Below are positions 34,023 through 48,462 of a DNA stretch of 64,000 nt, one piece after another. The DNA is taken from sequence record NC_010583.1, one strand, 5' to 3'. The position numbers and the translations under genes are program-made. Below the pieces are notes generated by a model. The model did not search any database and had not been told where the DNA came from. It saw only the letters and a list, made by a program, of their open reading frames with translations. This DNA comes from Escherichia phage Eps7. Every line of letters begins with the position of its first letter. Positions within the stretch are counted from its first letter, which is position 1.

Positions 34023-34026
34023 AATT

Positions 34027-34744: not shown

Positions 34745-34822
34745 TGGAAGCGGGTGCAGGAATCGAACCTACCTCTTTCTAGCTTATGAGACTAGCGATC
34801 TCTACCAGAGATCTAACCCGCA
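34745..34822 (-). tRNA. tRNA-Met (CAT), possibly initiator type
   Basis: manual fold: unpaired 1-72, anticodon loop CTCATAA, T-loop TTCGATT, CCA. Confidence 0.55.
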
Positions 34823-34828
34823 ATTGTT

Positions 34829-34907
34829 TGGTCTCCGTGGGAGGATTTGAACCCCCCGACCCTATCGCCCCAAACGAAACGCTCTGGCCAAACTGAGCTA
34901 CACGGAG
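34829..34907 (-). tRNA. tRNA-Pro (TGG)
   Basis: manual fold: acceptor CTCCGTG/CACGGAG, anticodon loop TTTGGGG, T-loop TTCAAAT, CCA. Confidence 0.55.
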
Positions 34908-34938
34908 AATATTCTTTGTTAACTCACTTTATAAATAT

Positions 34939-34967
34939 ATTATACAGAGAATTAAGCTAAATAGCAA
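34939..34967 (-). promoter_or_regulatory. sigma70-type early promoter upstream of tRNA pair
   Basis: ATTATA 34939-34944, TAGCAA 34962-34967, 17-bp spacer. Confidence 0.6.
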
Positions 34968-35212
34968 CTACATTTTTAATAAATTTACTTATTAGGTAAG
35001 TCACCGAGCTATCAACTCATGCTAGCGAAAGTTTGCGAGACCTTCTTTAAGTACTAGAACACACCCGCCGATGTGTCGGACTTACTTAATAAGTAAACTT
35101 TCGTTTACTTACACCTACCTGGTCGGGAGGATTTTCAGCGACTAGAACCGGCCGGAAACTCATCGCCTTGTTTATCTAGGAGTCCGTTCTCTAGGAAGCA
35201 GAAACCTAAATT

Positions 35213-35287
35213 TGGTGCGGTCGGAGGGAATCGAACCCTCAACTTCTGGTTGGCAACCAAAAAATTATACCTTTTAACTACGAACGC
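35213..35287 (-). tRNA. tRNA-Gly (GCC)
   Basis: manual fold: T-arm GAGGGTTCGATTCCCTC, anticodon stem TTTGG/CCAGA, loop TTGCCAA, CCA. Confidence 0.6.
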
Positions 35288-35302
35288 ATAATAAGTCAAT
35301 CT

Positions 35303-35440
35303 AGGCAGGACTTGAACCTGCTATCACTTGTGCGGATTTACGAGAACCATTCTTTCACTCGAATCGAACGAGCTTCTACCCTCGGCAAGCTGGTGTCCCC
35401 TCTCCACCACGCTAGAATGATAATTAATGCCTGCTCCTTT
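35303..35440 (-). other. unresolved tRNA-like region (two T-arm-like motifs, no encoded CCA)
   Basis: GCAGGTTCAAGTCCTGC and GCTCGTTCGATTCGAGT motifs; acceptor stems could not be paired by hand. Confidence 0.3.
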
Positions 35441-35500
35441 GAATCAAGAAGTCCACCCCGGACTTTGGGTCTTTGCAGTACATCACGCTGCTCTGATGTT

Positions 35501-35576
35501 TGGTACACCCACTAGGACTTGAACCTAGAACCCTCCGCTTAAGAGGCGGTAGCTCTAACCATTGAGCTATGGATGT
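35501..35576 (-). tRNA. tRNA-Lys (CTT)
   Basis: manual fold: T-arm CTAGGTTCAAGTCCTAG, anticodon loop CTCTTAA, CCA. Confidence 0.55.
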
Positions 35577-35652
35577 ATTATTATGTTTTGCAGTGCTCTA
35601 AATATAGACACTTCCCACGCGGTGGTTATCTATACCAGCGTCCTGCAAAAAT

Positions 35653-35729
35653 TGGCGCGACCGATGGGATTCGAACCCACATTTTCTCCCGTGACAGGGG
35701 AGTACCATTACCAAGCCAGCCCCGATCGC
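35653..35729 (-). tRNA. tRNA-Asp (GTC)
   Basis: manual fold: anticodon stem CTCCC/GGGAG, loop CTGTCAC, T-loop TTCGAAT, discriminator G, CCA. Confidence 0.65.
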
Positions 35730-36025
35730 ATAATTTATTTACTCAGTTTTGAGTTTTTCGATAGCTTCCTCAACCTCTTTTAGAGCTTCACGACGGGCAT
35801 TCTGTTGCTGCATATCTTGAATTAATGTCAGTTTTTGTTTTTAATTTCTTGATCCCAAACCTTAATATTATTAATCAGACTATCACGATCAGCTTCTAGT
35901 CGAGCAATTGCACGAGTTGTCATATCTATTTCCTCAGTTATTAATGAAAATGGTATCTGTGACTGAATTCAATATCAGTAATGATAGCTGGTTGGCTACC
36001 GGTTTACTTAACTCTACACAGAATA

Positions 36026-36108
36026 TGGCGGGCCGTGTAGGATTCGAACCTACGTTGTCTTTCGACATGGATTAACAGTCCACCGCCAAACCGCTTGGCT
36101 AACGACCC
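36026..36108 (-). tRNA. tRNA-Asn (GTT) with enlarged variable region
   Basis: manual fold: anticodon arm GTGGACTGTTAATCCAT, T-arm GTAGGTTCGAATCCTAC, CCA; 83 nt. Confidence 0.55.
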
Positions 36109-36115
36109 TAAAATT

Positions 36116-36191
36116 TGGACGACCGCATGAGATTCGAACTCACATAAGGAGGTTTTGCAGGCCTCCGCCTAAGCCATTCAGCCAACGGTCG
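36116..36191 (-). tRNA. tRNA-Cys (GCA)
   Basis: manual fold: anticodon loop CTGCAAA, discriminator U, T-loop TTCGAAT, CCA. Confidence 0.55.
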
Positions 36192-36369
36192 AGTTATCTT
36201 GCTTTTCGAGATTAGTAAACTCTAGATCTTTAGAATGTCCTATAGATCTAGCATAATAGCCATCTCCAGCATCATAGCCTGACTTACCACACTCACACAT
36301 CTTAAACTCTCTATAACGAGTGAAAATATGTTCAGAACCACAACACTTAAATTTAACTAACATTTTCAT
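36178..36369 (-). CDS. zinc-ribbon-like small protein
   Basis: 63-aa ORF with CC...CxC; 3' end overlaps tRNA by ~14 nt so stop may be misplaced. Confidence 0.4.
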   Translation of the reverse strand: MKMLVKFKCCGSEHIFTRYREFKMCECGKSGYDAGDGYYARSIGHSKDLEFTNLEKQDNSTVG

Positions 36370-36590
36370 TTAACACGCTCCGGTAAATCTTCGAGTTTAT
36401 ATTGAGTAGCCACATTAGCAGCATCTAGTAACAAACCCATATGTTTAAGAATCCTAGTGATAGCTTCGCCTTCTGCTTCTTCTACAAAAGTGCGTAGTTG
36501 AATGAAGTCAATACCACCATCCATACCAGAGAAAATGTTAAGTAAGCGAAGCATTACCAGCTTACGTTCTTTTAATTCTTGTTCTGCCAT
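36366..36590 (-). CDS. hypothetical protein
   Basis: track ORF 36366..36608 trimmed to Met 30 nt downstream of promoter -10. Confidence 0.5.
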   Translation of the reverse strand: MAEQELKERKLVMLRLLNIFSGMDGGIDFIQLRTFVEEAEGEAITRILKHMGLLLDAANVATQYKLEDLPERVK

Positions 36591-36619
36591 GTTGCTTCTC
36601 CAGTTCAATTTATGTAATA

Positions 36620-36648
36620 ATTATACAGAACTTTAAGGATTTAAGCAA
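36620..36648 (-). promoter_or_regulatory. sigma70-type early promoter
   Basis: ATTATA 36620-36625, AAGCAA 36643-36648, 17-bp spacer. Confidence 0.6.
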
Positions 36649-36928
36649 CTACATTTTTCAGAAATTTGATGCCTTTCTTTTTCTTCTTATACTTCCACGT
36701 TAATGGATTCTGTCGATTATGAACGCTTGAGATCTTTGTCTCGTCAAATTTCTTCAATACCATGTAATCACACGCCAACTGCTCTAGTGGAATGGTTTCT
36801 CCATCAAAAGCATAAACATAAGGCTGTTGACTAGCACGATAATGATAGACTTTGTTAACTCTACGTTTCAGCGACTTATCCGCGCAGTAAATAAAGAAGT
36901 TTTCAGGATGCATCAGCATCTCCTTCAA
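36641..36928 (-). CDS. hypothetical protein
   Basis: 95-aa ORF directly downstream of tRNA. Confidence 0.45.
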   Translation of the reverse strand: MKEMLMHPENFFIYCADKSLKRRVNKVYHYRASQQPYVYAFDGETIPLEQLACDYMVLKKFDETKISSVHNRQNPLTWKYKKKKKGIKFLKNVVA

Positions 36929-36930
36929 AT

Positions 36931-37005
36931 TGGTGCAACCTGTACGTAACGATCGTACCTCTTCTCCTTTTCAGGGAGACGCTAATCCATCTCAGCTAAA
37001 GTCGC
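36931..37005 (-). tRNA. tRNA-Phe (GAA)
   Basis: manual fold: anticodon stem TCTCC/GGAGA, loop CTGAAAA, CCA; atypical T-loop. Confidence 0.5.
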
Positions 37006-37011
37006 AAATAT

Positions 37012-37088
37012 TGGCAAACCTACTAGGACTCGAACCTAGACCGTACGGTTTTGGAGACCGACATGCTGTCCAGTAACACTCTAGGAAT
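37012..37088 (-). tRNA. tRNA-like, anticodon probably CCA (Trp); acceptor stem imperfect
   Basis: T-arm CTAGGTTCGAGTCCTAG, anticodon arm CGGTCTCCAAAACCG, CCA end; 5' acceptor pairs poorly. Confidence 0.4.
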
Positions 37089-37096
37089 GCAGAAAT

Positions 37097-37173
37097 TGGC
37101 GTCCTGTGCGGGGATCGAACCCGCAAATCCTACCTTGAAAGGGTAGTGACTTTACCAGTTTGTCTAACAGGAC
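37097..37173 (-). tRNA. tRNA-Glu (TTC)
   Basis: manual fold: acceptor GTCCTGT/ACAGGAC, anticodon stem CTACC/GGTAG, loop CTTTCAA, CCA. Confidence 0.7.
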
Positions 37174-37180
37174 TTAAATT

Positions 37181-37271
37181 TGGTGTTGGATGATGGAGTC
37201 GAACCACCCGAGACCCTTCCGAGTCGGCAGATTTACAGTCTGCTTCGCTACCTCTACGATACTAATCCAAC
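37181..37271 (-). tRNA. tRNA-Tyr (GTA), long variable arm
   Basis: manual fold: anticodon stem GCAGA/TCTGC, loop CTGTAAA, 91 nt, CCA. Confidence 0.65.
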
Positions 37272-37396
37272 ATATTTGAATGAAAAATAAGTCGGTTAAA
37301 CTCAAGGTGGAATATTTCAGGAAATCCTGACTTTACCCCTAAAAGCAACTCGCTTAGTTACTTCTCATTCAGATATGTTTTCCAAATTAGATAACT

Positions 37397-37426
37397 ATTA
37401 TATCAAGTTTTGAAGGACTGAGCAAG
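37397..37426 (-). promoter_or_regulatory. sigma70-type promoter overlapping a hairpin
   Basis: ATTATA 37397-37402, AGCAAG 37421-37426; inverted repeat CTGAGCAAG...CTTGCTCAG 37418-37450. Confidence 0.45.
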
Positions 37427-37461
37427 TCAAATTTTAAAGAACTTGCTCAGTGCTATATCAG

Positions 37462-37737
37462 TTACTCGAAGCTAGGAGTGACACTCAGTTTGAATGGAAG
37501 CTCGAACACTTCTTCATAATCATCATTGAGCGTAATTACACGACCTTCTAGCTTAGTCATGGTGATTTCGATATCAGCCTCTGCATCAGGAGCCATACCA
37601 GCTTCCACACATTTAGCTTTGACTTCCGGCAGAAGTTCTACATCGTAGAAATAAAGCCATTCAATCTCACCTTCCCAGCCACCCCAGGATTTACAAACAG
37701 CACTTTCAACACCAGTTGCAGTAACACGTTTTGACAT
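37462..37737 (-). CDS. hypothetical acidic protein
   Basis: 91-aa ORF 31 nt downstream of promoter. Confidence 0.5.
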   Translation of the reverse strand: MSKRVTATGVESAVCKSWGGWEGEIEWLYFYDVELLPEVKAKCVEAGMAPDAEADIEITMTKLEGRVITLNDDYEEVFELPFKLSVTPSFE

Positions 37738-37767
37738 TCGTTAACTCCTTCATCAATTTATATAACT

Positions 37768-37797
37768 ATTATAGCAGAAATCTTAAGTAAAAAGCAA
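37768..37797 (-). promoter_or_regulatory. sigma70-type early promoter
   Basis: ATTATA 37768-37773, AAGCAA 37792-37797, 18-bp spacer. Confidence 0.6.
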
Positions 37798-37827
37798 GTA
37801 CATTTTTAAAATTTCTGCTTGGAGGAG

Positions 37828-38034
37828 TTAAACTCCTGATTCTTCAGCCAGATCAAGCCCAACCAACGTGATTGCCATAATAGCCGCGCCATGTTCTTTC
37901 TCTCCTAGCTCTTTGGCTTGAGTGAGAATATTTAGGAACTGCTTTTGAAAATCTGCAACTTCTTCTGTCATGCCTGCTTCAGCAATAATTCCTTTCAGCA
38001 TAAAGCGTTGTGCCGTAATTTCAGGATTAGCCAT
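37828..38034 (-). CDS. hypothetical protein
   Basis: 68-aa ORF. Confidence 0.45.
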   Translation of the reverse strand: MANPEITAQRFMLKGIIAEAGMTEEVADFQKQFLNILTQAKELGEKEHGAAIMAITLVGLDLAEESGV

Positions 38035-38185
38035 TTATTATCTCCAGTTATTTAGAATGTAAGCCAAACTTAGGATCATAGCGATCGTAAGTCGTACCAT
38101 TAGTTGAAGCCTTGATGCTATGAAAACGACAGTACATAAATTTACGTAGTGCTTTCTTAATAGCTTTCATTTTATTTCCTTAATT

Positions 38186-38262
38186 TGGTAGGGGTGGTGG
38201 GATTCGAACCCACAAAACCTGAATTTTAAGTCCAGTACCTATGCCAATTCGATTACACCCCC
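38186..38262 (-). tRNA. tRNA with anticodon TAA (Leu-type) but short variable arm
   Basis: manual fold: T-arm GTGGGTTCGAATCCCAC, anticodon stem CTGGA/TTCAG, loop CTTAAAA, CCA; D-arm irregular. Confidence 0.45.
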
Positions 38263-38270
38263 ATGTAATC

Positions 38271-38608
38271 TTAGCGAATCTCTAAACCCTGGAAATATCG
38301 AGGGAATGGAGAGCCAACTTCAAAATTGATGCCCCAATTAAGTTCAACGAGTTCAGATTTATTAAGATCTAGGCCATTACCTTCAAAGATATAGCCGTAA
38401 ACCGCAGGGAACATAGCTGCTAGATCTTCCATATCGGAATGAGCATTGTGTTCTTCACGGAACTGCTCAACTCTTCAATAGAACTTTTCTAGGAGACTCA
38501 GGTACGATGAACGTTACCACATCAGTAGAATCATCGGTACGATACACCGTAGCTTGGAACAAGCCAACACCTAAAAGGTTTATTGCCGGAGTAGTAAAAA
38601 TATCCATC
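38271..38608 (-). CDS. hypothetical protein, frame interrupted near 38470
   Basis: two adjacent protein-like frames (MDIFTTPAINLL... and ...EQFREEHNAHSDMEDL...) each below track threshold. Confidence 0.35.
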
Positions 38609-38794
38609 TTAGCCTCGCTCAATGTCTAGACAAATTGCATATTCAGGGTTGATACCAGTACCTTTACATGTAGGACATTCCCATTCTCTACAGAAAATAT
38701 CCCCAGGTTCTGCATCATCCTGCCTACCACTACCATGACAGTCCTTACACCGACATTCTTCTAATGCTTTCTTCATTTCATAGAATCTAGACAT
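38609..38794 (-). CDS. zinc-finger-like small protein
   Basis: 61-aa ORF with CxxC...CxxC. Confidence 0.5.
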   Translation of the reverse strand: MSRFYEMKKALEECRCKDCHGSGRQDDAEPGDIFCREWECPTCKGTGINPEYAICLDIERG

Positions 38795-38811
38795 ATAGTC
38801 TCCTAGTTAAT

Positions 38812-38889
38812 TGGTGGCTCCCGGAGGATTCGAACCTACCTACCTTTCGCTTATGAGGCGACGGCTCATACCAAATGAGCTTGAGAACC
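38812..38889 (-). tRNA. tRNA with anticodon CAT (third CAT tRNA)
   Basis: manual fold: D-stem GCTC/GAGC, anticodon loop CTCATAA, T-loop TTCGAAT, CCA. Confidence 0.55.
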
Positions 38890-38894
38890 AAATT

Positions 38895-38988
38895 TGGAGG
38901 AAGATGCCAGATTCGAACTGGCACACCGTGTCTCCACAGCTACTGGCTGTTTAGCAAACAGCTCCCTTACCTTTAGGGTTAATCTTCC
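38895..38988 (-). tRNA. tRNA-Ser (GCT), long variable arm
   Basis: manual fold: acceptor GGAAGAT/ATCTTCC, anticodon loop TTGCTAA, T-arm GCCAGTTCGAATCTGGC, 94 nt, CCA. Confidence 0.6.
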
Positions 38989-39002
38989 GAATTTATGAAT
39001 AT

Positions 39003-39031
39003 ATTATACAGAAAATTTCGGCATTAAGCAA
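39003..39031 (-). promoter_or_regulatory. sigma70-type early promoter upstream of tRNA pair
   Basis: ATTATA 39003-39008, AAGCAA 39026-39031, 17-bp spacer. Confidence 0.6.
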
Positions 39032-39039
39032 GTGAAATT

Positions 39040-39336
39040 TTACTGAACATTGCACTGATATACTTGTTTGATACGTGTCACTGACTTCTTAGTTGGGTTG
39101 ATAGAAGAACCCTGCCACCAACGTGATTCTGAGCTGAGAACAGCCCCAGGAACAGCTTGTTCTTTTGGCAGAACAATATCAAAACACTGTTCACCCATAT
39201 TATCTTTAATGTGCGACCAAATGTCTAGAGTAAATCGTTCTAGCTTATTACAAACTTGAACTTGACAAAGTTCCTGTTGTGGAGCAGCAAATACAGAAGT
39301 AGATACTAGAGTCAATGCAAGTACAATGCGTTTCAT
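39040..39336 (-). CDS. secreted/periplasmic protein (signal peptide)
   Basis: track ORF trimmed to MKRIVLALTLVSTSVFA start; MREESNM prefix is a leader artefact. Confidence 0.5.
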   Translation of the reverse strand: MKRIVLALTLVSTSVFAAPQQELCQVQVCNKLERFTLDIWSHIKDNMGEQCFDIVLPKEQAVPGAVLSSESRWWQGSSINPTKKSVTRIKQVYQCNVQ

Positions 39337-39366
39337 ATTTGATTCCTCTCTCAAATTTATAAATAT

Positions 39367-39394
39367 ATTATACAGAAATTTTCTATATAAGCAA
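39367..39394 (-). promoter_or_regulatory. sigma70-type early promoter
   Basis: ATTATA 39367-39372, AAGCAA 39389-39394, 16-bp spacer. Confidence 0.55.
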
Positions 39395-39411
39395 GGTAAA
39401 AATTTATGTAT

Positions 39412-39434
39412 ATAGCCCTCTAAGCGAGGGCTAT
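39412..39434 (-). terminator. hairpin ATAGCCCTC-loop-GAGGGCTAT downstream of pnuC-like gene
   Basis: perfect 9-bp stem; T-rich tract is weak. Confidence 0.4.
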
Positions 39435-39441
39435 AACTACT

Positions 39442-40134
39442 TTATTTGTTAACGCGTACAAAGTATCCTTTATAGGCTCCCATAATAGAGTTACCTAAGA
39501 ATACTAGCCACATTGCTAGGATTGCATAAGATGCACCTGTAGATTGAGCAGTTACAAGCCAAATGTACACAGTACCAATGTTAATAGCAATCCAAATCAG
39601 CCATTGTTCAGCATATTGTTTGACCATAAGCCACATAGCAATCACACTACCTACCGCAGTAAATGCATCCAACATTGGGAATGGATCAGCCGTAGTAGCA
39701 AGGAAACTACCATAACCTAACGTGGCTACTGCTAAAATCCCTAGAGTCAGCAAAGCTTGAGCTTTTGTCAGAACTTTAGTTGGAACATCCGGCAGATTAC
39801 TTGGCTTATTTTTATGCCATAAGTACATTCCATAAAACTGCATAGGAACGTAGTATAGCAGGTTTAGTGCAGCGTTACCATAAAGATCTGCGTTTAAAGC
39901 TGTAATACCATATGTAAGAACACCCACTAAGCCCCAAATATAGTTGGAAACACGTCCTTTTGCAACCAGAATAACACAAACCACATTGGTTATTGCAGTA
40001 GCCCAATCTAGAGCTGTACCATTATAGTTTGCTAAACTAATAAAGGCGACTGCTATAAACAGCCACAGATATTCCAGAGGTTTCCAGTTTTTAAAGTCAT
40101 TTACGAGATAGTTAGTCATATTAAAACTCTCCAA
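39442..40134 (-). CDS. pnuC: PnuC-like nicotinamide riboside transporter
   Basis: 230-aa multi-TM ORF overlapping the end of the NadR-like gene; size and topology typical of PnuC. Confidence 0.55.
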   Translation of the reverse strand: MESFNMTNYLVNDFKNWKPLEYLWLFIAVAFISLANYNGTALDWATAITNVVCVILVAKGRVSNYIWGLVGVLTYGITALNADLYGNAALNLLYYVPMQFYGMYLWHKNKPSNLPDVPTKVLTKAQALLTLGILAVATLGYGSFLATTADPFPMLDAFTAVGSVIAMWLMVKQYAEQWLIWIAINIGTVYIWLVTAQSTGASYAILAMWLVFLGNSIMGAYKGYFVRVNK

Positions 40135-41176
40135 AGATAAAGTGATGAATCAGCCAGTCTACTGCGTTTACTGCTTCGTCCATACGAACTTTGTAGTCCG
40201 GAGAGTCGATGTAAACAGTACGCCCTTCAGGGAACTGATTTGGAAATTCTTTCTTCATCTGCTCGAACAGTTCAGAAGTAATTGAACGATCGGAGTTAAT
40301 ACGTAAACCATCATCTACCCACTTGACAGTAGGCGCTAGAACAATTACTAAATCGTAATGTTCTTCTTTTGCAATTGCTGTAACCACAGGGTTCTTACTA
40401 TGTTCATAAAGTCTGTGGTAGAACTCAGTAATAAAAGCATTTGTATCCACAAACATGATCTTATTTGCAGTACGTTTTGCTTCAAACTCTAGCTCTTTGT
40501 GTCTGAACGCAATTTTACTATAGTCTTCGCTGGTAAGCAGATTTTCGTTACCAACTAGATCAACTTCACAATACGTTCGGCCATATTCTTTTACCCACGA
40601 AGTGTTGTATAGCTTCGCAAGGTATTTTGTTAAAGTAGTCTTTCCTGAGCTTTCAGTCCCAATGATTACAACCTTACGCACGTAATCTTTACGAACTACG
40701 CTAGGAAGAAACTCCCAATACTTCATAAGATCATTACGAATCATTGTAGCTGAGATTGGAACACGAGTCCGATCAGAATCTACAATATAATGACCAAACT
40801 TCGGCAGATATTTCTTATATTCTGCATCATAGTCTAGTTCGCTAGAGAAAATGGTGATCTCAGGCAAATGTCCGTAATTTTCATTAAGGATTCTAGCATA
40901 TTCCGGCCAACCATTCGGATATTCAGGAATATCATCTTCAATAATGTACTCTACCGAAATGTGCTCAATATCCGCGTAAGTTTGTTCTAACCAACGAAGT
41001 CGATTCTTTAACTGTAATACTTCCTGATCACGTGTGTTCTGCTTATCCAGCCAACGATTATCATGACTAACTACAACAATAACTCGTTCACACATAGTTG
41101 CTGCTGTGTTTATTAGGTTAATATGACCACGCGTTAATGGCGCGAACTTACCAATTACTAGACCAGTCTTAATCAT
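40121..41176 (-). CDS. nadR: NadR-like bifunctional NMN adenylyltransferase / ribosylnicotinamide kinase
   Basis: N-terminal nucleotidyltransferase motif GKFAPLTRGHINLI and C-terminal Walker A GTESSGKTT; start trimmed to MIKTGLV. Confidence 0.65.
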   Translation of the reverse strand: MIKTGLVIGKFAPLTRGHINLINTAATMCERVIVVVSHDNRWLDKQNTRDQEVLQLKNRLRWLEQTYADIEHISVEYIIEDDIPEYPNGWPEYARILNENYGHLPEITIFSSELDYDAEYKKYLPKFGHYIVDSDRTRVPISATMIRNDLMKYWEFLPSVVRKDYVRKVVIIGTESSGKTTLTKYLAKLYNTSWVKEYGRTYCEVDLVGNENLLTSEDYSKIAFRHKELEFEAKRTANKIMFVDTNAFITEFYHRLYEHSKNPVVTAIAKEEHYDLVIVLAPTVKWVDDGLRINSDRSITSELFEQMKKEFPNQFPEGRTVYIDSPDYKVRMDEAVNAVDWLIHHFIFGEF

Positions 41177-41205
41177 ATTTGATTCCTCTCTCAAATTTAT
41201 AAATA

Positions 41206-41234
41206 TATTATACAGAGAATTTAGCGTTCAAGCA
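41206..41234 (-). promoter_or_regulatory. sigma70-type early promoter
   Basis: ATTATA 41206-41211, AAGCAA 41229-41234, 17-bp spacer. Confidence 0.6.
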
Positions 41235-41390
41235 ATCGAATTTTTAAACTTTTTAGTGGAAAAATCTCAAGGCATTTAGTGGTAGCACGTTGTTGCTACA
41301 ATAATAGTATATGTATTACTAAAGTAAATAAAGAATTAAATACTAAAGACCTTAGTTGAATAACTTATGGGCTTTTCTTTTGCCTTAAAT

Positions 41391-41427
41391 ACAGAAAAGC
41401 CCGCGCTCTCGGAGGAAACGCGGGCTT
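41391..41427 (-). terminator. rho-independent terminator
   Basis: AGCCCGCG-loop-CGCGGGCT stem followed on minus strand by TTTTCT. Confidence 0.65.
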
Positions 41428-41450
41428 GGTTCGAAGATTACGTGTAACTA

Positions 41451-42395
41451 TTACTTGTTACGCATATCCATGATCATTTGACCATCGTAGCCAGTACCAA
41501 CAACAGTCTGCGGTACACCACCTTGTATTTTTCAGCACGAAGCATTTCAAACTTCCAGCTGCTTCCAACGAATCATTTCAGGAGTAATGGTACGTTGCAG
41601 CGCGGCGTTAGCTTCAGCTTCTTTCTTAGCTGCGTACAGTTTAGCATCTGCGTCACGTTCGTTAGCTACTGCCATGTTTTCACGAGCAGAACGATCAGCT
41701 TCAGCTTGCTTAACTTTCTGCTGTGCTTCTTGTTCAACACGAGCCAATTCAGCTTTAGCGGCGTTAACTTGTTCTTCACGAACTTTTGTGTTTTGTACCT
41801 GTTCCATGATTACAGGTGGCAGAGTAATATCCTGAAGGAATACTTGCTTAACCGTGTAACCATAAGGACGCGCGTACTCTTCTACTTCTTGCTGAATAGC
41901 AGTTTGCAGTTGAGCCTGAATCTTAGCGTCGAACAGATCTTGTGCTTTTGGTACAGACTTACCAAACTCACGAATCGTAGATAGCATCTTCTCTTCAACG
42001 TACTTGTTCAGAGCTTGATCCTGAGTACCTGCGTTAACACGGTTCATAGGAGCTTTAGCACCATCAAACTGCAACATAACGGTAATGTCAACAGTGGACT
42101 TAAACTTATCCTGGCTAGGAACCTGAAGTTTATCCAGTTTCATGGAAATATCTTTCGTACTAAAAGTATCAAAAGAAGCAAATGGGTTAACAATATGGAA
42201 GCCTGGCAATACAGGATTAGGGCTAACTTTACCCAGGAAGGTTTGGGTCTTAACAGTACCATCCTGAACAACTGTGTAGGAATTGAGAGCCAGAATAAGA
42301 GCGCCAAGACCAACTACAGCACCAACACCCCAACGTTTGATAGTGCGAATTACTTTTTGCTCAGAAGTCAGTTCTTTAGTGTTTTTAGTAAACAT
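41451..42395 (-). CDS. SPFH/band-7 (stomatin/prohibitin-like) membrane protein, C-terminus frame-shifted
   Basis: 282-aa ORF with N-terminal TM and long Gln/Ala coiled-coil region; protein-like frame continues to stop near 41451. Confidence 0.5.
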
Positions 42396-42406
42396 ATATT
42401 TCCTTA

Positions 42407-42607
42407 TTATTTAGAAGAGTTAGCTACTACAGTTACTTTAGTTGCAGAAATAAACAGGCTAGCATCCACAGCAAATTCAGGAGCTTTGATATCTCCATTA
42501 TGAAATATGACTATACCGGAGACTACTTCAAATGCTAGTGCTGTAACATCGGTGGTATTTACTTGTGAATGTTCACCTACTACTTTTACTATATATCGTG
42601 TTTTCAC
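42407..42607 (-). CDS. hypothetical protein
   Basis: 66-aa ORF downstream of tRNA. Confidence 0.45.
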   Translation of the reverse strand: MKTRYIVKVVGEHSQVNTTDVTALAFEVVSGIVIFHNGDIKAPEFAVDASLFISATKVTVVANSSK

Positions 42608-42633
42608 TTTATTTTCCTAGCAGTTAATAAAAT

Positions 42634-42708
42634 TGGCCGAGGTGACAGGATTCGAACCTGCATAAAGGAATTTAGAAGACTCCTGCCTATCCCTTAGACT
42701 ACACCCCG
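42634..42708 (-). tRNA. tRNA-Arg (TCT)
   Basis: manual fold: acceptor CGGGGTG/CACCTCG, anticodon stem GGAGT/ATTCC, loop CTTCTAA, T-arm GCAGGTTCGAATCCTGT, CCA. Confidence 0.6.
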
Positions 42709-43805
42709 TTTAGGTATTTTTAAGAACTCTTATAAAAGCTCTTAAAGATACCCGACGGTAGGTAGGGTCAGCCCCCTCAGATTAAGCTCTGCAGCCCTTC
42801 CGTCAGACAATATCTTCCAGTTTAAGTCAGGGTGACTTTGTGGTTATGTTCTCCGTATGTGAAGAACTCGGTTAGGCTTAGGTCATGACTCCCAGCCTAC
42901 TGCTGCCACTCAACAGGAATTATCGCGAATTACCTGTACTATTGGGCACCATTAGTGACATCTCTCATGTCAGCGTTTCCCACTCTCATATTCACGCGGT
43001 CTGTTAGAATCGCACCTCCGATTTTCGATGCGAAGCTGGATGCCTAGTCTCAGGTTAAACGGGGCACACACTAGGCAGTGATCCCGAGTTCCGAGTTTGG
43101 TTGAGGCCGTCAGGTTTCCTCGTGGTTTAGCTGTTTCGATTCTAACCTAATACTGATCAGGTGGCGTACCTCCTGAACCGTCATAGTATGTACTCCAGCA
43201 GCGAATGCTTATCCGGTATAAGCCCGAGTTATCCGATTCTTTCCAGAAGGAGCAGTAAAGCTCAATGTCAGCCTGTGAGCATCTGGCAGTGTTATCACAT
43301 AAGTCAGTTCGACACCCCACATTTTAGTGCCTGGTAGATCCCGAATGAAGCCCTCAGTCGTTAGACCTCCATCATTCATCAAAGATTTACGCTACCCACT
43401 ATTCGATGGACAATCGCCGCATTGTGGTATACATACGTTTTCACTTGCATCCTAGACGGGTCAGCGTTGAAAGTTATATGGGTTTCTCAAGCCCAACCTT
43501 CAGTCTTCTACCCCTGGGACACGCACCGTATTTCACACTGTGCCTAGCTCCTGTTGAGACCCATCGTTTTGTATAAATTAGAGAAGAGTTTAGAGGAGAG
43601 GTTTCAGACGCCTCATTTTACAAGAAGTCTCGAACCTATATTCGTTACTCTAGTCACTTGGCCGGATATACCGGACTGGACTCGGAACTCTAACAGGTGA
43701 TCATTCTTAACCCACCGACTCTATTCAGTGTCAGAAGCTATCACTAGGTGAATCGCTAAAGCTCACTCAGCGTAATCGGCTCGCTGTTCTCTAATTTATG
43801 AATCT
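42709..43805 (-). other. ~1.1-kb ORF-free, G+C-elevated segment transcribed from an early promoter (candidate large non-coding RNA or foreign insert)
   Basis: no ORF of 60 codons or more in six frames; sampled G+C ~45-52 percent versus ~30-40 percent in flanks; promoter at 43806-43834 points into it. Confidence 0.4.
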
Positions 43806-43834
43806 ATTATACAGAATTTTGGAACGTTTAGCAA
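43806..43834 (-). promoter_or_regulatory. sigma70-type early promoter reading into the ORF-free segment
   Basis: ATTATA 43806-43811, TAGCAA 43829-43834, 17-bp spacer. Confidence 0.6.
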
Positions 43835-43842
43835 ATCAATTT

Positions 43843-44286
43843 TTAATTAAATTCGCCAGCAACCTGAGCAGCAATGCCACCATCGTAACGACCAGGAAAC
43901 TCTTCCTTAATCGCTTTCATCAGCATACCCTTTGTAATCCCAGGATTCAACTTAACTAATTCTGCAAAGTATTTGCGAATCTCAGAATCAGATAACTGAG
44001 GCGGCAGATACTGTTGTAGCCATTTGTTCAGTATATATTCATACTGAGCAGACTGCAAGCTATAATTATCAAGGTCTTGACCGTGAAGTTTAGCTTTTGT
44101 CTGATTAATGCTTTTCAGTTGAGCTTTTAGATAAGATACAAACTGTTCAGAAGTAATGAAGTCTTTATCAACACGCTGAAGATCTCCGATTATAGTCTGG
44201 TAGCTTTTAGCTACTTCTTTATCAGAACCATCAACCTTAGATTCCTGCAAAGCCCTACGCAAAACATCTAGAATATTCTCTTCCAT
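43843..44286 (-). CDS. GatB/YqeY-domain-like protein
   Basis: 147-aa ORF; recalled resemblance of C-terminal region to YqeY family; TAATG overlap with upstream small ORF. Confidence 0.45.
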   Translation of the reverse strand: MEENILDVLRRALQESKVDGSDKEVAKSYQTIIGDLQRVDKDFITSEQFVSYLKAQLKSINQTKAKLHGQDLDNYSLQSAQYEYILNKWLQQYLPPQLSDSEIRKYFAELVKLNPGITKGMLMKAIKEEFPGRYDGGIAAQVAGEFN

Positions 44287-44456
44287 TATTTAATTCCCAG
44301 TGCTTGGTTAAAAGATTGTTCTGTCATAACTGCCGAGACTTTAGCGAAATCAAACTTCTTAGGGTTTGTAGTAATTTCAGCAACGTTAGTAGTTTTAACT
44401 GTTTTCGTAGTACGGATACCACGAGTATTAACACCAATAATTACAACTGATTTCAT
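44286..44456 (-). CDS. small hypothetical protein (56 aa)
   Basis: ORF below track threshold, 32 nt downstream of promoter. Confidence 0.4.
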   Translation of the reverse strand: MKSVVIIGVNTRGIRTTKTVKTTNVAEITTNPKKFDFAKVSAVMTEQSFNQALGIK

Positions 44457-44487
44457 ATTTCGCTTCCTCTCATTAATTTATGAAAGT

Positions 44488-44516
44488 ATTATACAGAAAT
44501 TTAAGGCTTTAAGCAA
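44488..44516 (-). promoter_or_regulatory. sigma70-type early promoter
   Basis: ATTATA 44488-44493, AAGCAA 44511-44516, 17-bp spacer. Confidence 0.6.
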
Positions 44517-44524
44517 TCGAATTT

Positions 44525-44992
44525 TTAAGTTTTCTTAACCACAGGCTTGTAGAACGTATGGCCTTGAATCTTCGTTGTTTTCTTAAACTTCTTTGTCCAG
44601 TACGGTTTATCTTTACCACTATGGAAGTATAACGCTCCATGTGTTGGATCTTGTGGTAAATCAACGTAGTATATCACTCTAGCTAAATTCTTAGCAACTT
44701 GCCAAGCCTCATCGGTTTTATCAACTTTTGGTCTCTTGGCCACCCAAGAGAACTGGTTAGACTGATATACTACTTTACAGTAAGAATCAGGAAAGTACCA
44801 GAGTTAACACGGTTTTTTAGTAACCTGTGCAACTGCGATCATTCCTTTAGTGCCCTCACCTCGTGCTTCGAAGTAGATATTTTTTGCAATGCAATCAATC
44901 TGCTTTGAGTCGTAGGTCGCATGACTATTGAAGCTATAGGTTAGGGCAGCTATTAAAAGCAAAGCTGCCTTCATTTTATTTACTCCGGCCAA
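44525..44992 (-). CDS. SleB-like cell wall hydrolase with signal peptide, frame interrupted
   Basis: ORFs 44804..44992 (signal peptide, NIYFEARGE) and 44525..44743 (HGALYFHS); intervening frame reads VNSGTFPDSYCKVVYQSNQFSW. Confidence 0.5.
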
Positions 44993-45297
44993 TCGTACTC
45001 AATACGATTAGGGCTTTCTTGATACCCTTCGTCTAAGAGATCATTACGCATGGTCTCTTTAGCTACTGGGTTCGAGGTTACTAGTACCACTTTCTTGGGT
45101 CTCTGACCAAATTCTAGGAGTAAACGAAGAATTTGATAACCTTCCATACCATCTACAGCCAGATCGTTATCCATATAAACGAAATGACCTGTGGTATCGG
45201 TTTTATTCAGAAACTCAATAGCGGCTTCGGGGGTTCGAATGATAATGTCCATTCCATGAAGGTTACGTACATCATCAATCAGAATATGAAAAATCAT
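44980..45297 (-). CDS. receiver (REC/CheY-like) domain protein candidate
   Basis: 105-aa ORF with ILIDD ... YMDNDL ... VVLVTS ... K spacing resembling response-regulator receiver domains. Confidence 0.4.
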   Translation of the reverse strand: MIFHILIDDVRNLHGMDIIIRTPEAAIEFLNKTDTTGHFVYMDNDLAVDGMEGYQILRLLLEFGQRPKKVVLVTSNPVAKETMRNDLLDEGYQESPNRIEYDWPE

Positions 45298-45327
45298 AAT
45301 AGCCTCGTCTCATCAATTTAAAAATAT

Positions 45328-45356
45328 ATTATACAGAAAACTAAACTAATTAGCAA
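45328..45356 (-). promoter_or_regulatory. sigma70-type early promoter
   Basis: ATTATA 45328-45333, TAGCAA 45351-45356, 17-bp spacer. Confidence 0.6.
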
Positions 45357-45736
45357 ATACATTTTTAAATTGAGAGACTAGTAAACCGATAAACAGCCTA
45401 GAGGCGCCACAGGCCATATCTTATGAGCCATGTACCTTTGATCTAGGGTTTGAATCATCAACGAATACTTTGCATCTTTTAGCTTTAGAAGGTTAGAAGT
45501 TTGAGTTCTTTTAACTTTTCAGCTTTCATACTTGAGCGTTGATCTTTGAAGTTGTGTTGGTACTACCAACGACCGTTTTTACAGTTCAGCTTAAGAGGCT
45601 GGTGTAATAAACATAATCTCCAATAGATTATACTTTATAGTATGGTCAGCGGTCTTATTTAACCTCGTATTTCAACCGCTGCTGCGAGGTAAGATGCTTG
45701 GGCTTTCGTCTACCGATTTACTAGTCTTTTAAATTA

Positions 45737-46375
45737 TTACTCTACTTCGATGAAAGTAGAGGCGTTGGACTCAGACAGAACAAAGTCAACGTTAGTTGCA
45801 AAGTCCTGGTATTCTTCGTCGTGTTGCTTGATCAGCTTTTCTAGCTCCAGCGGATCGATCAGGAACGGAGTGTTCTTGAGTTCCAGCAGGTTAAGCTGCA
45901 TCTTAACTTCATCCTCGGAAGTCTTCTTGTCGCGGGTAGCCATGGTATCCTGCAGACGCTCATACTTGGCGTCAAACTGAGCCTTCTGAGTGTTAAACTT
46001 AACAGTAGCAGCATGGAACTGCTTACGCATGTTAGCCAGCAACTGAGCTTTGAGTTCCATAGAACGCTTAGCTTCGATTGCTTCCGCAACAGTCATAGAG
46101 CGAGAACCGATCTCTACAACAGTTTCAGCATTGCTCTTGATCAGCGCAGCTTTCAGCTGATCACGCTGGGACATCATATCCAGCAGAGACTGGAAATCAG
46201 TCTTAATACGAGTAGACAGAGCATCTACTTCGATTGCAGCGCCAACGACAACTTGGTTCTTGTCCTTACCTTCACCAACAGCGATCAAAAGCTGTTGTTC
46301 AGTAGCTTTACGGATTTTAGCTTCCAGAGACTTGATAGTTGCCAGAGCACGAGTTTTAGAGATACGAGTAGTCAT
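45737..46375 (-). CDS. coiled-coil hypothetical protein
   Basis: 212-aa ORF, G+C-richer than neighbours. Confidence 0.55.
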   Translation of the reverse strand: MTTRISKTRALATIKSLEAKIRKATEQQLLIAVGEGKDKNQVVVGAAIEVDALSTRIKTDFQSLLDMMSQRDQLKAALIKSNAETVVEIGSRSMTVAEAIEAKRSMELKAQLLANMRKQFHAATVKFNTQKAQFDAKYERLQDTMATRDKKTSEDEVKMQLNLLELKNTPFLIDPLELEKLIKQHDEEYQDFATNVDFVLSESNASTFIEVE

Positions 46376-46429
46376 TATTTGCTTCCTTATATGAAGTTTG
46401 AGATTTGAATTTGTTTTAAAAACGGTCTA

Positions 46430-46612
46430 TTACAGACCGATTGCCAGCATAGTGCGCAGAACAGTATCAGAACTGTTATCAATATTCGGATTGGCGCGAT
46501 TCAGCACGTTAAAGATTTTCTGGATGCCGGACTGACGCTCAGCCATACGACGCAGACCCAGGTTACGTTTTGCTACTTTACCATTTTTACGGACGTTTTT
46601 AGATACTGGCAT
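46430..46612 (-). CDS. small basic protein
   Basis: 60-aa ORF. Confidence 0.4.
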   Translation of the reverse strand: MPVSKNVRKNGKVAKRNLGLRRMAERQSGIQKIFNVLNRANPNIDNSSDTVLRTMLAIGL

Positions 46613-47385
46613 AATTATTTTCCTTTTGTTGTTCTCTCAAATTTATGAATATATTATACAGAATTTGGAGCTGAAAGCAAATCAAATTTTGATTTTTTTC
46701 GATCATGATGGCTACACAATAACTTTCAACTAAAGCATCGAATGCGGGATCATGTTTCACTGGATAGATTCCATAACGAATGGTATCCATCTTTTCCATT
46801 TTAGCTTTTGCCCAGCTAGCACCTTCGGCTTCTAGATCTTTATAGCTATAACCAGCTTGCATCCACTGATTACGGAAAGATCGAACGTTACCTAAGTTCC
46901 AGAATTTCCACGGAACTATTTCTTCATGGGTTCCGGCATGGAACGTATTTGCAGAGTAGATTGTCATATCAAACTCTGGGCCATTGCCGTAATACAGAGC
47001 ATTATCTCCTAGAGACAATTCCATAATGTTCTGAGCCATAGAGAAGGCAGCATAATTAGAGCCTACGTCATTAGTGCAGTGATGCTTACCATCACGGAAG
47101 GCAATCAGTTTAGGATTACGACCATTTAGAGCCTCCATAATATGGAGCGCAGATGGACTGTTTTTTAGCTTGATCCATCCAGAATGCAATAGTAGAGGCA
47201 GTTACCTTAGCACCCGCATTAAGCTGATCTTGAACGTCTAGAGTAACGAATACCAGATCAGGATCTTTATCAATTCCGTGCATCGCTACAAAAGCGAAAG
47301 AAGGCATTGCAATATGAGTAGTACCGCAATTTCCTGGAGTACCTAGAGATTCAATGTCCAGCATACCAAAGGGCTTGAATTTCAT
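46599..47385 (-). CDS. putative exonuclease-like protein, frame interrupted
   Basis: ORFs 47116..47385 (MLDIESLG acidic motif) and 46599..47189 overlap; 3' end of downstream piece runs into promoter. Confidence 0.4.
46653..46680 (-). promoter_or_regulatory. sigma70-type early promoter
   Basis: ATTATA 46653-46658, AAGCAA 46675-46680, 16-bp spacer. Confidence 0.55.
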
Positions 47386-47415
47386 AATTATGTCCTTTAT
47401 TGTTGTAGAAAACTA

Positions 47416-47628
47416 TTAAAGAGCTGTCTCTTTAATAGACTCCCACTGTTTGGGGTCTTTCAGAGGAAGTTCCTCTTCTTCAAACAGGTCTGTTCCATTT
47501 TCACTAACATCCCAGTTTTCTTCCATGATTTCTTCTAGAAGCTCATGTTTAGAAAGACGAGTGTAGTCTCTAGCAGACTTGTGAGTGCTAGCACGGTTAA
47601 AATCATTCTTTGCAACGAAGTTACGCAT
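47416..47628 (-). CDS. hypothetical protein
   Basis: 70-aa ORF. Confidence 0.45.
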   Translation of the reverse strand: MRNFVAKNDFNRASTHKSARDYTRLSKHELLEEIMEENWDVSENGTDLFEEEELPLKDPKQWESIKETAL

Positions 47629-47669
47629 AGTTTCTCCAAATAAGAGGGGCTTTCGCCCCCTGATTTAAA

Positions 47670-47885
47670 TTACTTGCCCAGCAGTTTAAGGATATTTTCC
47701 TTAATAGTTTGAGCAGATTTTTCACTCTTATTGGTTTCAGCCAGTTTCAGAGCGAGTTCTTCCTGCTGTTTCTGAATATCAGCAGCAGTTTTCTGGTCAG
47801 CTTCAATACGAGCTTGAAGTTCATCAGTAATAGTGGTAAAGGAAGCAACGATTTCAGTAACGGAACGTGGTTTCTTAGAGAACAT
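47670..47885 (-). CDS. coiled-coil small protein
   Basis: 71-aa ORF. Confidence 0.45.
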   Translation of the reverse strand: MFSKKPRSVTEIVASFTTITDELQARIEADQKTAADIQKQQEELALKLAETNKSEKSAQTIKENILKLLGK

Positions 47886-47946
47886 AAAAATATCCTTAAT
47901 TAGTCAGAGAAAGAGTTAGTATATGGGGCTTTCGCCCCATCAATCA

Positions 47947-48462
47947 TTACTTCGCTTTACGCTTACGAGTAGGTTTAGCGGATTTACGATCAGAAGCACC
48001 AGTAAACTTAATACCGATACCGTAGCACAGAGCGCGAACGTTGTCACGGCTATACTCTACACCGAAAATATTCGGTTTAACGGAGCCAAACTGTCCACGG
48101 GATTCACGCATTACGTCAGCCATTGGCTTACGCTTCTGATTGACTGCTTTTTCGTAGTCTTTCAGAGCCATACCGTTGCGGGCGAACATCTCAGCACCGC
48201 CGTTAAAGCTCAGAGTTACCGGTACAGACTTATGACCTTCACCCTTGATGAACACAACCTGCTTAGCAGTTGCGCGAGTAGAGTTCTTGGCCTTCGGCTT
48301 CTGGCGAACCGGAGCCGCAGACTTCAGGGCAGTCTGAGCCTGAGCATCAGTAGGATGCTTACGCAGATGACGTTCCAGACGAGCCTTACGATTGGCTTCG
48401 GTCTGAGCGAAAGTTTTAACTGCCGGAGCTGCCTGAGTTTTTGCGTTTTTCTGCTTAGCCAT
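47947..48462 (-). CDS. basic (Lys/Ala-rich) protein, possible nucleic-acid binding
   Basis: 171-aa ORF. Confidence 0.55.
   Translation of the reverse strand: MAKQKNAKTQAAPAVKTFAQTEANRKARLERHLRKHPTDAQAQTALKSAAPVRQKPKAKNSTRATAKQVVFIKGEGHKSVPVTLSFNGGAEMFARNGMALKDYEKAVNQKRKPMADVMRESRGQFGSVKPNIFGVEYSRDNVRALCYGIGIKFTGASDRKSAKPTRKRKAK

Follow-up and report, generated by a model that had tools for sequence, protein, structure and literature searches.

Large phage RNAs and the Eps7 locus

GOLLD and ROOL are RNAs encoded by phages and prophages, the former next to tRNA islands and the latter often near them (Kretsch et al., bioRxiv 10.1101/2024.12.08.627333). GOLLD RNAs are ornate, exceed 800 nucleotides (nt), vary in their 5' part, are more conserved in their 3' part, and sometimes hold a tRNA in the central linker; ROOL (Rumen-Originating, Ornate, Large) RNAs contain pseudoknots and have no known protein partner, and kissing loops hold the multimers of both together (bioRxiv 10.1101/2024.12.08.627333). 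Here we describe a segment free of open reading frames (ORFs) in a 64,000-nt stretch of Escherichia phage Eps7 (NC_010583.1), a T5-like phage (Epseptimavirus); this whole stretch is called the window below. With a probability of roughly 0.6, we read the segment as the gene for a large, modular, structured RNA of T5-like phages that is predicted to be stable and may act in trans. GOLLD and ROOL are its closest analogues, and covariance models exclude membership in either family.

Like GOLLD, the predicted RNA is phage encoded, is longer than 800 nt (1,091 nt), and abuts a tRNA-Arg gene at the edge of an island of 29 tRNAs. Unlike GOLLD, which comes from Lactobacillales hosts and lake metagenomes, it belongs to phages of Enterobacterales, and neither the window nor nine relatives matched the GOLLD covariance model. 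The tRNA of GOLLD lies in an unstructured linker, whereas here a tRNA-shaped unit caps a conserved helix. GOLLD builds an RNA-only multimeric cage; for the present RNA, the one hint of self-association is an invariant palindromic loop (GUCAUGAC). With ROOL the RNA shares the presence of a pseudoknot, and that same invariant loop may be set beside the kissing loops of ROOL. However, the ROOL covariance model found no match, the motifs differ, and oligomerization is here a conjecture. ROOL RNAs are also about half the size of the 1,091-nt RNA of the window.

Other systems resemble parts of the locus. Phage T4 makes stable RNAs known as species 1 and 2 (bands C and D), which are ∼120 to 140 nt long, lie in a compact cluster, and are matured by host tRNA-processing enzymes. 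These are likewise non-tRNA RNAs co-transcribed with phage tRNAs, but the RNA of the window is about ten times larger and multidomain. YrlA, a bacterial Y RNA-like molecule of which some phages carry versions, consists of a long irregular stem with a terminal tRNA-like module (acceptor-like stem and T-arm), much as the central arm described below joins a stem with conserved irregularities to a tRNA-like module. In contrast, YrlA measures only ∼100 to 130 nt and forms its stem from its own RNA ends, and no Rfam Y-RNA match was found here; to our knowledge, E. coli, the host of many such phages, lacks a Ro partner. Finally, rRNA operons hold spacer tRNAs within long flank helices, the parts of which are released by RNase P and RNase III, and the present locus similarly embeds a tRNA-shaped unit in a long transcript whose flanks pair into long helices. 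It differs in having no rRNA homology and in keeping specific mismatches and an internal loop in its flank helix across subfamilies. These conserved irregularities suggest recognition and not simply cleavage.

A preliminary description of the window, made by eye, had singled out positions 42709 to 43805 as an ORF-free segment of raised G+C content, entered by an early promoter and bounded at its far end by tRNA-Arg(TCT), and these features are indeed present. No ORF of at least 60 amino acids (aa) overlaps positions 42709 to 43842 on either strand, the longest being 56 to 58 aa. Sliding G+C is 0.45 to 0.49 inside the segment versus ∼0.33 to 0.40 in both flanks. Among the ORF-free, tRNA-free stretches of the window, the segment ranks second by length and has the highest G+C (0.46, the others 0.31 to 0.41). 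The accompanying statement that every other kilobase is densely coding was slightly too strong, positions 4430 to 5905 being likewise ORF-free. In Klebsiella phage 150049 the segment is 99.8% identical, and the annotation is empty there between tRNA-Arg and the next coding sequence (CDS).

The promoter (score, 10/12) was the sole minus-strand match between 42300 and 44400 in a promoter scan. Both of its hexamers are kept in 17 of 17 aligned relatives, as well as in Pectobacterium phage DU_PP_V, Providencia phage PR1, Erwinia phage KEY, and L085, a 104-kb IMG/VR contig (L plus a number denotes sequences of our comparison set). It has the features of a T5-type early promoter, TATAAT being followed by AGATTC and ATAAATTAGAGA (the T5-type downstream region reads ATAAATT), and the homologous site in T5 is annotated as "repeat c copy 3." Position +1 is presumably the A at 43799, placed by analogy with T5 PN25 (TATAATAGATTCA); transcription of the segment is thus predicted to run on the minus strand from the A of TATAATAGATTCA. 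We found no terminator-like site between the promoter and tRNA-Arg, and literature searches found no transcriptome paper on this locus.

The segment does not encode a conserved protein. Every ORF of at least 35 aa gains stops or frame-breaking length changes in relatives at 75 to 85% identity, and an intact gene at this place in homologous phages, which would have contradicted the preliminary description, was sought and not found. This ORF conservation test rules out a decayed gene or an indel artifact. One or more microproteins of fewer than 60 aa could in principle be encoded, given that ORFs of 40 to 58 aa exist on both strands and that some records annotate such CDSs; none of them stays open and in frame across these relatives, however, and the CDSs annotated over the locus disagree in strand and position between GenBank records, making microproteins the least credible explanation that we considered. 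"Hypothetical protein" CDSs lie over the RNA in phages TrudiGerster (bas27_0080-82; L006, 882-1560), Sugarland (gp139-141; L008, 394-1433), Sepoy (Sepoy_126/127; L011, 662-1186), KEY (key_076; L048, 2157-2297), and PR1 (PR1_88; L076, 3401-3664). The CDSs that GenBank places over the RNA gene are probably spurious.

Nor does the segment belong to a known RNA family or to the host. The preliminary description had failed to match it to known RNAs, and Rfam 15 found nothing in it even at E values of ≤10. Only tRNAs were detected at E ≤ 1 over 28000 to 48000, at E ≤ 10 over 42600 to 43860, and at E ≤ 5 in nine relatives; introns, ribozymes, tmRNA, RNase P, 6S, Y RNA, GOLLD, and ROOL had no match in the window or these relatives. 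An array of decayed tRNAs was ruled out in the same way, since there are no weak tRNA matches save for the central unit in relatives. Host-derived DNA or a contaminant was likewise ruled out: none of 5,426 complete E. coli genomes contains a match, and many phages carry the locus in synteny. Full-text literature searches, with the supplements of Fremin et al. 2023 outside the comparison, found no description of the RNA. That study reported candidate RNAs of 29 to 151 nt from IMG/VR, among which fragments of the segment RNA might occur. Discussion of long noncoding regions in T5 and BF23 concerns only the border of first-step and second-step transfer DNA (FST/SST; PMC10644984).

Base pairing conserved across T5-like phages

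Conservation of structure was assessed module by module; this replaced a search over all column pairs of a global alignment, in which swapped modules are force-aligned and produce noise. Four pair-count tests, covering helix P1, the pseudoknot core, the central arm, and the 3' domain (Table 1), were compared with 500 shuffles and with slid controls. Across the four, 85 to 96% of pairs were observed versus 23 to 56% in slid controls, and the observed values beat all or nearly all of the shuffles and every slid control. Pairing kept by compensatory substitutions, above both kinds of control (no shuffle of 500 reached the observed percentage paired or covariation score), is the pattern of a structured noncoding RNA, and comparative evidence backs 131 nested and 7 pseudoknot pairs in the window sequence. 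Covariation across related phages, a check proposed in the preliminary description, shows helices and a pseudoknot kept by compensatory changes; with the co-conservation of promoter and segment across Demerecviridae, the absence of a conserved ORF, and the G-U strand signal, it supports that description's reading of the segment as a long leader or noncoding RNA. We consider a functional structured RNA very likely.

Table 1. Features of the predicted RNA locus, in positions of the window
Feature	Positions	Strand	Remarks
Whole predicted noncoding RNA, 1091 nt	42709..43799	-	+1 to base preceding tRNA-Arg; ORF-free; homologues in ∼520 phage records
Sigma-70 early promoter	43806..43834	-	TTGCTA (43834-43829), 17-nt spacer, TATAAT (43811-43806)
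5' domain, ∼226 nt	43573..43799	-	Closed by helix P1; interior made of swappable hairpin modules
5' pseudoknot core	43714..43786	-	Tested by pair counts, shuffles, slid controls
Domain 2 core, optional	43404..43566	-	Closing CGAUGG (43566-43561) with CCAUCG (43409-43404)
Domain 2 extension, ∼80 nt	43322..43403	-	Window type only (window, L004, L005, L006); GGUAG...CUACC stem
11-nt complementarity arms	43086..43096 and 43680-43690	-	Exact inverted repeat
Central arm	43191..43321	-	Most conserved part; 27 sequences including KEY, DU_PP_V, PR1, L085
Domain 4, variable middle	42984..43190	-	Weakest part of model; minimum free energy (MFE) z ∼ -0.5
3' domain A, multihairpin	42840..42983	-	Closed by GUGG (42983-42980) with CCAC (42843-42840)
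Hairpin loop GGAGUCAUGACC	42881..42892	-	On covarying stem; position 3 is A in some T5-type RNAs
3' domain B	42754..42838	-	Hairpin AAGUCACCCUGACUU (42838-42824), conserved AAACUGGAAGAUA, junction with outer helix GACGG...CCGUC
Terminal 19-bp hairpin	42712..42753	-	Ends 3 nt before tRNA-Arg; nearly identical even in DU_PP_V (Mccorquodalevirinae)
tRNA-Arg(UCU)	42634..42708	-	ARAGORN and Rfam, 49.3 bits; UAA spacer after terminal hairpin

The pairing also identifies the strand. In the tested helices, 179 cells were G-U versus 24 A-C, and the same pairs read on the opposite strand were only 86 to 91% paired versus 95 to 96% on the minus strand; the molecule that folds is therefore the transcript of the minus strand, the strand into which the promoter points. 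For the 5' and 3' domains, dinucleotide-shuffle z scores were -2.6 and -3.7, respectively, on this strand, compared with -1.9 and -1.7 on the other. This asymmetry bears on the possibility that the locus acts as DNA, for instance in protein binding, as a hotspot of recombination, or as a replication origin primed by a transcript (R-loop); the hairpins would then matter at the DNA level or be irrelevant. A strong promoter, a slightly G-rich transcript (the plus-strand GC skew of the segment is negative), a mosaic history suggesting frequent recombination, and the invariant palindrome GTCATGAC, which could bind a dimeric protein, would all suit such an element. A structure complete on one strand only would not, and a loop-to-downstream pseudoknot with compensatory changes lacks a rationale at the DNA level; DnaA boxes and repeats, moreover, cluster elsewhere in the window (5548-5617). 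We therefore regard a DNA element as highly improbable.

In the 5' domain, P1 pairs positions 43799-43787 with 43586-43574, so that the 5' end is paired from +1 through its first 13 nt; as inverted repeat I1, the helix comprises 16 nt and is 94% complementary. Across 20 sequences, P1 was 85.0% paired versus 65.2% when shuffled (reached by 0 of 500 shuffles; slid controls, 44 to 56%), with a covariation score of 0.504 versus 0.195. Insertions and deletions occur in pairs, L006 carrying a 2-nt insertion and KEY a 1-nt deletion on both strands of the helix, and in DU_PP_V, PR1, and L085 P1 is made of entirely different yet complementary sequences. Just inside P1, hairpin CAGCG/CGCUG (43786-43782 with 43772-43768) presents the loop GCCGAUU (43780-43774), which forms a pseudoknot with AGUCGGU (43720-43714), 54 nt downstream and directly after a conserved GAAUAG. 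Hairpin P2 (43767-43764 with 43730-43727) lies between the pseudoknot halves, and all 4 of its pairs change on both sides. The core was 95.3% paired versus 87.4% when shuffled (0/500; slid controls, 23 to 43%), and two pseudoknot pairs themselves change on both sides (CG17/AU5/UA1 and GC20/UA2).

The preliminary description had noted internal complementary segments, and the exact 11-mer at 43086-43096 and 43680-43690 does exist. As a conserved helix it was rejected: it is present only where the same pair of modules occurs (the window, L001, and L010) and absent from L004, L005, L011, L012, and L013, although these share the 43086-43096 arm. The real long-range helix is P1.

The central arm was 96.4% paired versus 84.1% when shuffled (0/500; slid controls, 31 to 47%), with 18 pairs changed on both sides versus 8.8 expected. 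Its near-invariant 5' flank, GGGGUGUCGAACUGACUUAUGUGAUAACACUG, forms with the 3' flank a helix of 14 positions (43307-43294/43237-43224). This flank helix keeps a C×C mismatch (U×U in DU_PP_V), a G×G mismatch, and an AACA/A internal loop, while the surrounding Watson-Crick positions covary; alone it is 99.7% paired, with 7 compensatory pairs. A hairpin GCUUAU...AUAAGC follows at 43223-43207. According to a covariance model (R1), the module is present in a single copy per genome.

What the flank helix carries at its tip varies. In most relatives the tip is tRNA-shaped, scoring 29.3 to 37.1 bits on the Rfam tRNA model (gathering threshold, 29), and in some ARAGORN calls it tRNA-SeC(tca) or Ser(act). 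In the window, the tip (43286-43243) is a 44-nt unit of two hairpins, of the same type as in Sepoy, STG2, and GSW6; it had no tRNA match at E ≤ 10 and no ARAGORN call. In this small tip the acceptor-like stem is preserved, a G-C pair being replaced by A-U, and the PR1-type tip is a simple small hairpin. Leader and trailer of the tip are paired (the 14-position helix plus CU/AG) in 27 of 27 sequences; what follows the acceptor-like stem is GGA/AAAG and not an encoded CCA. Because the flanks are fully paired and CCA is not encoded, excision of the tRNA-shaped tip as a working tRNA is unlikely.

Two side observations concern this region. In some Epseptimaviruses the tip has a UCA anticodon (L003, 2463-2536; L009, 922-995; L016, 905-978) and is called tRNA-SeC or tRNA-OTHER; on paper it resembles an opal suppressor, and it sits in the same fully paired flank helix with no encoded CCA. 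In RNAs of the PR1 type (L076 ∼3630-3660, with equivalents in L078 and L085), an additional element that resembles a T-arm, GAGAGGTTCGATTCCTCC, separates the 5' domain from the central arm.

The 3' domain (42983-42714; 16 sequences including DU_PP_V) was 95.4% paired versus 87.9% when shuffled (0/500; slid controls, 33 to 49%), with 22 pairs changed on both sides versus 9.5 expected. Within it, AGUCAUGACC is invariant in the 16 aligned sequences, and the GGAGUCAUGACC loop motif recurs in KEY, outside that alignment. The stem beneath this loop varies as AGGC/GCCU, AGAC/GUCU, and AGGU/ACCU. At the core of the loop stands GUCAUGAC, a palindrome of 8 nt that is unable to pair within itself, and the 64-kb window contains a single copy of GTCATGAC; we conjecture that this loop is a candidate site for kissing-loop dimerization or for a protein. 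The outer helix of 3' domain B, as read from the sequences, is GACGG/CCGUC in the window, GACAG/CUGUC in L009, GACUG/CAGUC in KEY, and GACUAG/CUAGUC in DU_PP_V. All 16 pairs counted in the terminal hairpin, which is unique in the window, were 100% paired, with 5 one-sided G-U/G-C changes. This hairpin may protect the 3' end or serve as an RNase III site.

The remaining domains are more variable. Domain 2 is missing from T5-type RNAs. By RNAalifold on 11 sequences, it has 30 pairs, 17 of them compensatory, and its closing helix changes as CG5/UA4 and AU5/GC4/GU2; the structure of its extension is weakly supported, because only 3 to 4 close relatives carry it. Domain 4 contains a conserved hairpin, UCGCAUCGAAAAUCGGAGGUGCGA (43033-43010), and a module-specific repeat, I4, of 10 exact base pairs (43146-43137 with 43012-43003) that would close the domain and is missing in L004 and L005; RNAalifold on 12 sequences gave 6 compensatory pairs of 34. 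As a side observation, an exact 10-nt inverted repeat (42909-42918/43549-43558) would connect the 3' domain with the beginning of domain 2, in competition with a local covarying hairpin. For the whole RNA, the MFE was -335 kcal/mol unconstrained versus -261 kcal/mol constrained, and the unconstrained fold did not reproduce the covariation-supported helices; the full-length dot-bracket structure is a working model only.

This modular build raises the question of whether the transcript is a polycistronic precursor from which 5' domain, central arm, and 3' domain are cut apart as several small stable RNAs, after the model of the T4 tRNA cluster with its species 1 and 2. The domains are self-closed (by P1, the domain 2 helix, and GUGG/CCAC), and modules are gained and lost independently, PR1 lacking the 3' domain altogether. 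On the other hand, we found no internal promoters or terminators in the segment, the central helix joins sequences 5' and 3' of the tip, and the order of the domains is fixed. Such a precursor is accordingly a poor candidate, to which we give little weight.

Distribution and genomic neighborhood

Nucleotide searches against T5-like phages and host genomes had been suggested in the preliminary description. Megablast matched the segment to 460 phage records and blastn to 522, essentially all of them T5-like; none of the E. coli genomes matched. The match is a mosaic: segment blocks 1-137, 285-327, 379-536, 577-612, 720-827, and 950-1134 recur, and the intervening sequence has been swapped, lost, or lengthened in relatives. 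Length ranges from 818 to 1,338 nt among 17 aligned Markadamsvirinae and Sugarlandvirus sequences, and the RNA measures roughly 0.6 to 1.3 kb across relatives (∼1.09 kb in the window). Promoter, order, and motifs are shared by KEY, DU_PP_V (Mccorquodalevirinae), and PR1 (Priunavirus), by the syntenic loci read in IMG/VR contigs L078, L084, and L085, and, as the same architecture and motifs, by Sugarlandvirus; the domain order is constant across all lineages. In Vibrio phage Thalassa, no comparable gap was found at the syntenic site.

Searches of larger collections returned the same group of phages. A degenerate core motif matched 35 stretches in 2.9 million IMG/VR contigs, all of them on T5-like contigs; 34 came from contigs of 104 to 123 kb and the exception from a 14.5-kb fragment. 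A protein-guided IMG/VR search returned close relatives only. In a metagenome collection, 12 of 33 matching stretches were real copies, the long ones being contigs of T5-like size, and 21 were chance matches. Because the covariance model R1 was trained with the distant homologues included, its E values for them are not independent, and it was used solely for copy number and for sorting these 12 true from the 21 chance matches.

In T5 itself the RNA is 837 nt long (40701-41537), and a pseudo-tRNA is the sole annotation there. That annotation, the coming and going of modules, and the tolerance of the T5 tRNA region for large deletions would fit nonfunctional debris, that is, decayed tRNA or protein genes and recombination scars in a plastic tRNA region. 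Debris is nevertheless disfavored, and we give it almost no credence. Blocks of the RNA are near-invariant across subfamilies, including distant phages in which the YqeY-like protein encoded next to it falls to 32 to 38% identity; pairing is maintained by compensatory changes; relatives hold no intact gene; and apart from the central unit there are no tRNA remnants at E ≤ 10. Of the published viable T5 deletions, the two compared here, T5Mos (30661-38625) and T5-123 (29191-32442), stop short of the RNA locus. Its intactness in these mutants fits with importance and is not proof of it.

The YqeY-like neighbor lies upstream of the promoter (43846-44286, minus strand). It is a 147-aa protein with weak similarity to YqeY in its C-terminal part only (Pfam match, 25.4 bits; cut-off, 27) and is annotated variously as "tRNA amidotransferase," "recombination-related exonuclease," or hypothetical. 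Its conserved adjacency led us to consider an obligatory partnership with the RNA. This was downgraded to unlikely, because the Pfam match is below threshold and Sugarlandviruses keep the RNA without the protein.

On the downstream side, the main alternative to a trans-acting RNA is a cis-acting leader or processing platform, the fold of which controls maturation, stability, and timing of the downstream tRNA-Arg or CDS and of the embedded tRNA-like unit. Its flanking stems would guide RNase III or RNase P, on the pattern of rRNA operons that contain spacer tRNAs. In favor of this role, the RNA directly abuts tRNA-Arg in the same orientation, and its tRNA-shaped unit is enclosed by a long flank helix much as processing stems enclose a spacer tRNA; in relatives where a CDS follows the terminal hairpin, the RNA is formally a 5' untranslated region (UTR). 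However, the other tRNAs of the cluster lie 6 to 8 nt apart, and an RNA of >1 kb that includes a pseudoknot, an invariant loop, and conserved non-Watson-Crick pairs far exceeds what they need. The RNA is also kept whatever lies downstream, be it tRNA-Arg, a 510-nt CDS, or other genes, and several phages lack the tRNA-like unit while its flanks remain nearly invariant. On balance, we judge a purely cis-acting role unlikely.

Three further observations in and around the window are recorded here. Directly after tRNA-Arg, L085 carries on the reverse strand (∼1375-1720) a second T5-type promoter that leads into another ORF-free stretch of ∼250 nt and then more tRNAs; this stretch may be a second structured leader. 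The longest ORF-free stretch of the window is 4430 to 5905 (1,476 nt; GC, 0.37). Three matches to the DnaA-box consensus lie close together in it at 5548-5617, and it also contains several direct repeats and an inverted repeat of 24 nt (4564-4587 with 4848-4871). The stretch agrees with the long noncoding region that has been described for BF23 and T5 at the FST/SST border, where DnaA boxes and repeats likewise occur (PMC10644984). Rfam "Plastid-ycf2 5UTR" matches on the plus strand between 29713 and 35576 (23 to 36 bits; threshold, 65.7) are exactly antisense to phage tRNA genes and are artifacts of tRNA-like symmetry.

Proposed expression and function

The anatomy of the locus suggests how the RNA could be made. 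Host RNA polymerase would start at the early promoter (+1 at ∼43799) and read the minus strand through tRNA-Arg(UCU). The first 13 nt would pair with 43586-43574, locking the 5' triphosphate end in P1, and a cut by RNase P at the 5' end of the tRNA (42708/42709) would yield the 3' end of the RNA. The 19-bp hairpin, 3 nt from this new end, would block 3' exonucleases. Given a buried 5' end and release by RNase P with a terminal hairpin, the RNA would be expected to accumulate as a stable folded molecule. The processing step draws on general tRNA biology, in which RNase P matures tRNA 5' ends. Release as one stable RNA seems to us probable.

Several parts of the RNA resemble recognition surfaces, namely its conserved mismatches, its AACA/A loop, its pseudoknot, and its invariant palindromic loop. 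Tentatively, and at somewhat below even odds, we propose a role in trans, with the folded RNA serving as scaffold or sponge for some factor of translation or the tRNA world, as is suspected for GOLLD and ROOL. Self-association through the palindromic loop is a doubtful addition to this picture. A bolder version, for which we would claim still less, is a giant ornate RNA, a counterpart of GOLLD and ROOL in the T5/E. coli system, that self-assembles through the palindromic loop into a dimer or larger RNA-only particle and whose central arm captures a host or phage factor of the tRNA or translation machinery in early infection. Such capture, with or without the tRNA-shaped tip, might for example blunt tRNA-targeting defenses or retune translation.

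Several observations weigh against the proposal of a stable, trans-acting RNA. Phylogeny does not enter into the shuffle control, and the tested sequences are also those from which the structures were derived; relatedness is addressed by the slid controls alone. In the middle of the RNA (43330-42984), covariation is weaker and there is no thermodynamic signal (z ∼ 0). The tRNA-shaped tip is dispensable, being absent in the window, Sepoy, STG2, GSW6, and PR1, which weakens ideas of tRNA mimicry, and the Sugarlandviruses, with no detectable YqeY-like neighbor, remove the most obvious candidate for a protein partner. Finally, several relatives have no tRNA-Arg downstream and a CDS follows the hairpin instead (protein genes directly in KEY and PR1); release by RNase P therefore does not apply to all relatives, and in these phages the RNA might persist as a 5' UTR.

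In our assessment, the predicted RNA represents a new family among the large structured RNAs of phages. Work on T5 goes back about 70 years, and hundreds of T5-like genomes have been deposited, many as therapy candidates, with this 0.6- to 1.3-kb locus left blank or placed under contradictory "hypothetical protein" calls. If the RNA is functional, a new family would join the short list of giant structured RNAs of bacteria and phages (GOLLD, ROOL, OLE, raiA, and others), and the annotation of more than 500 genomes would be corrected. It would also provide a giant RNA in a tractable system, the phages of E. coli and Salmonella, for which deletions, compensatory and RNase mutants, pull-downs, and cryo-EM are standard practice, and the link between large phage RNA, tRNA island, and embedded tRNA-like unit, seen independently in GOLLD, would become directly testable.

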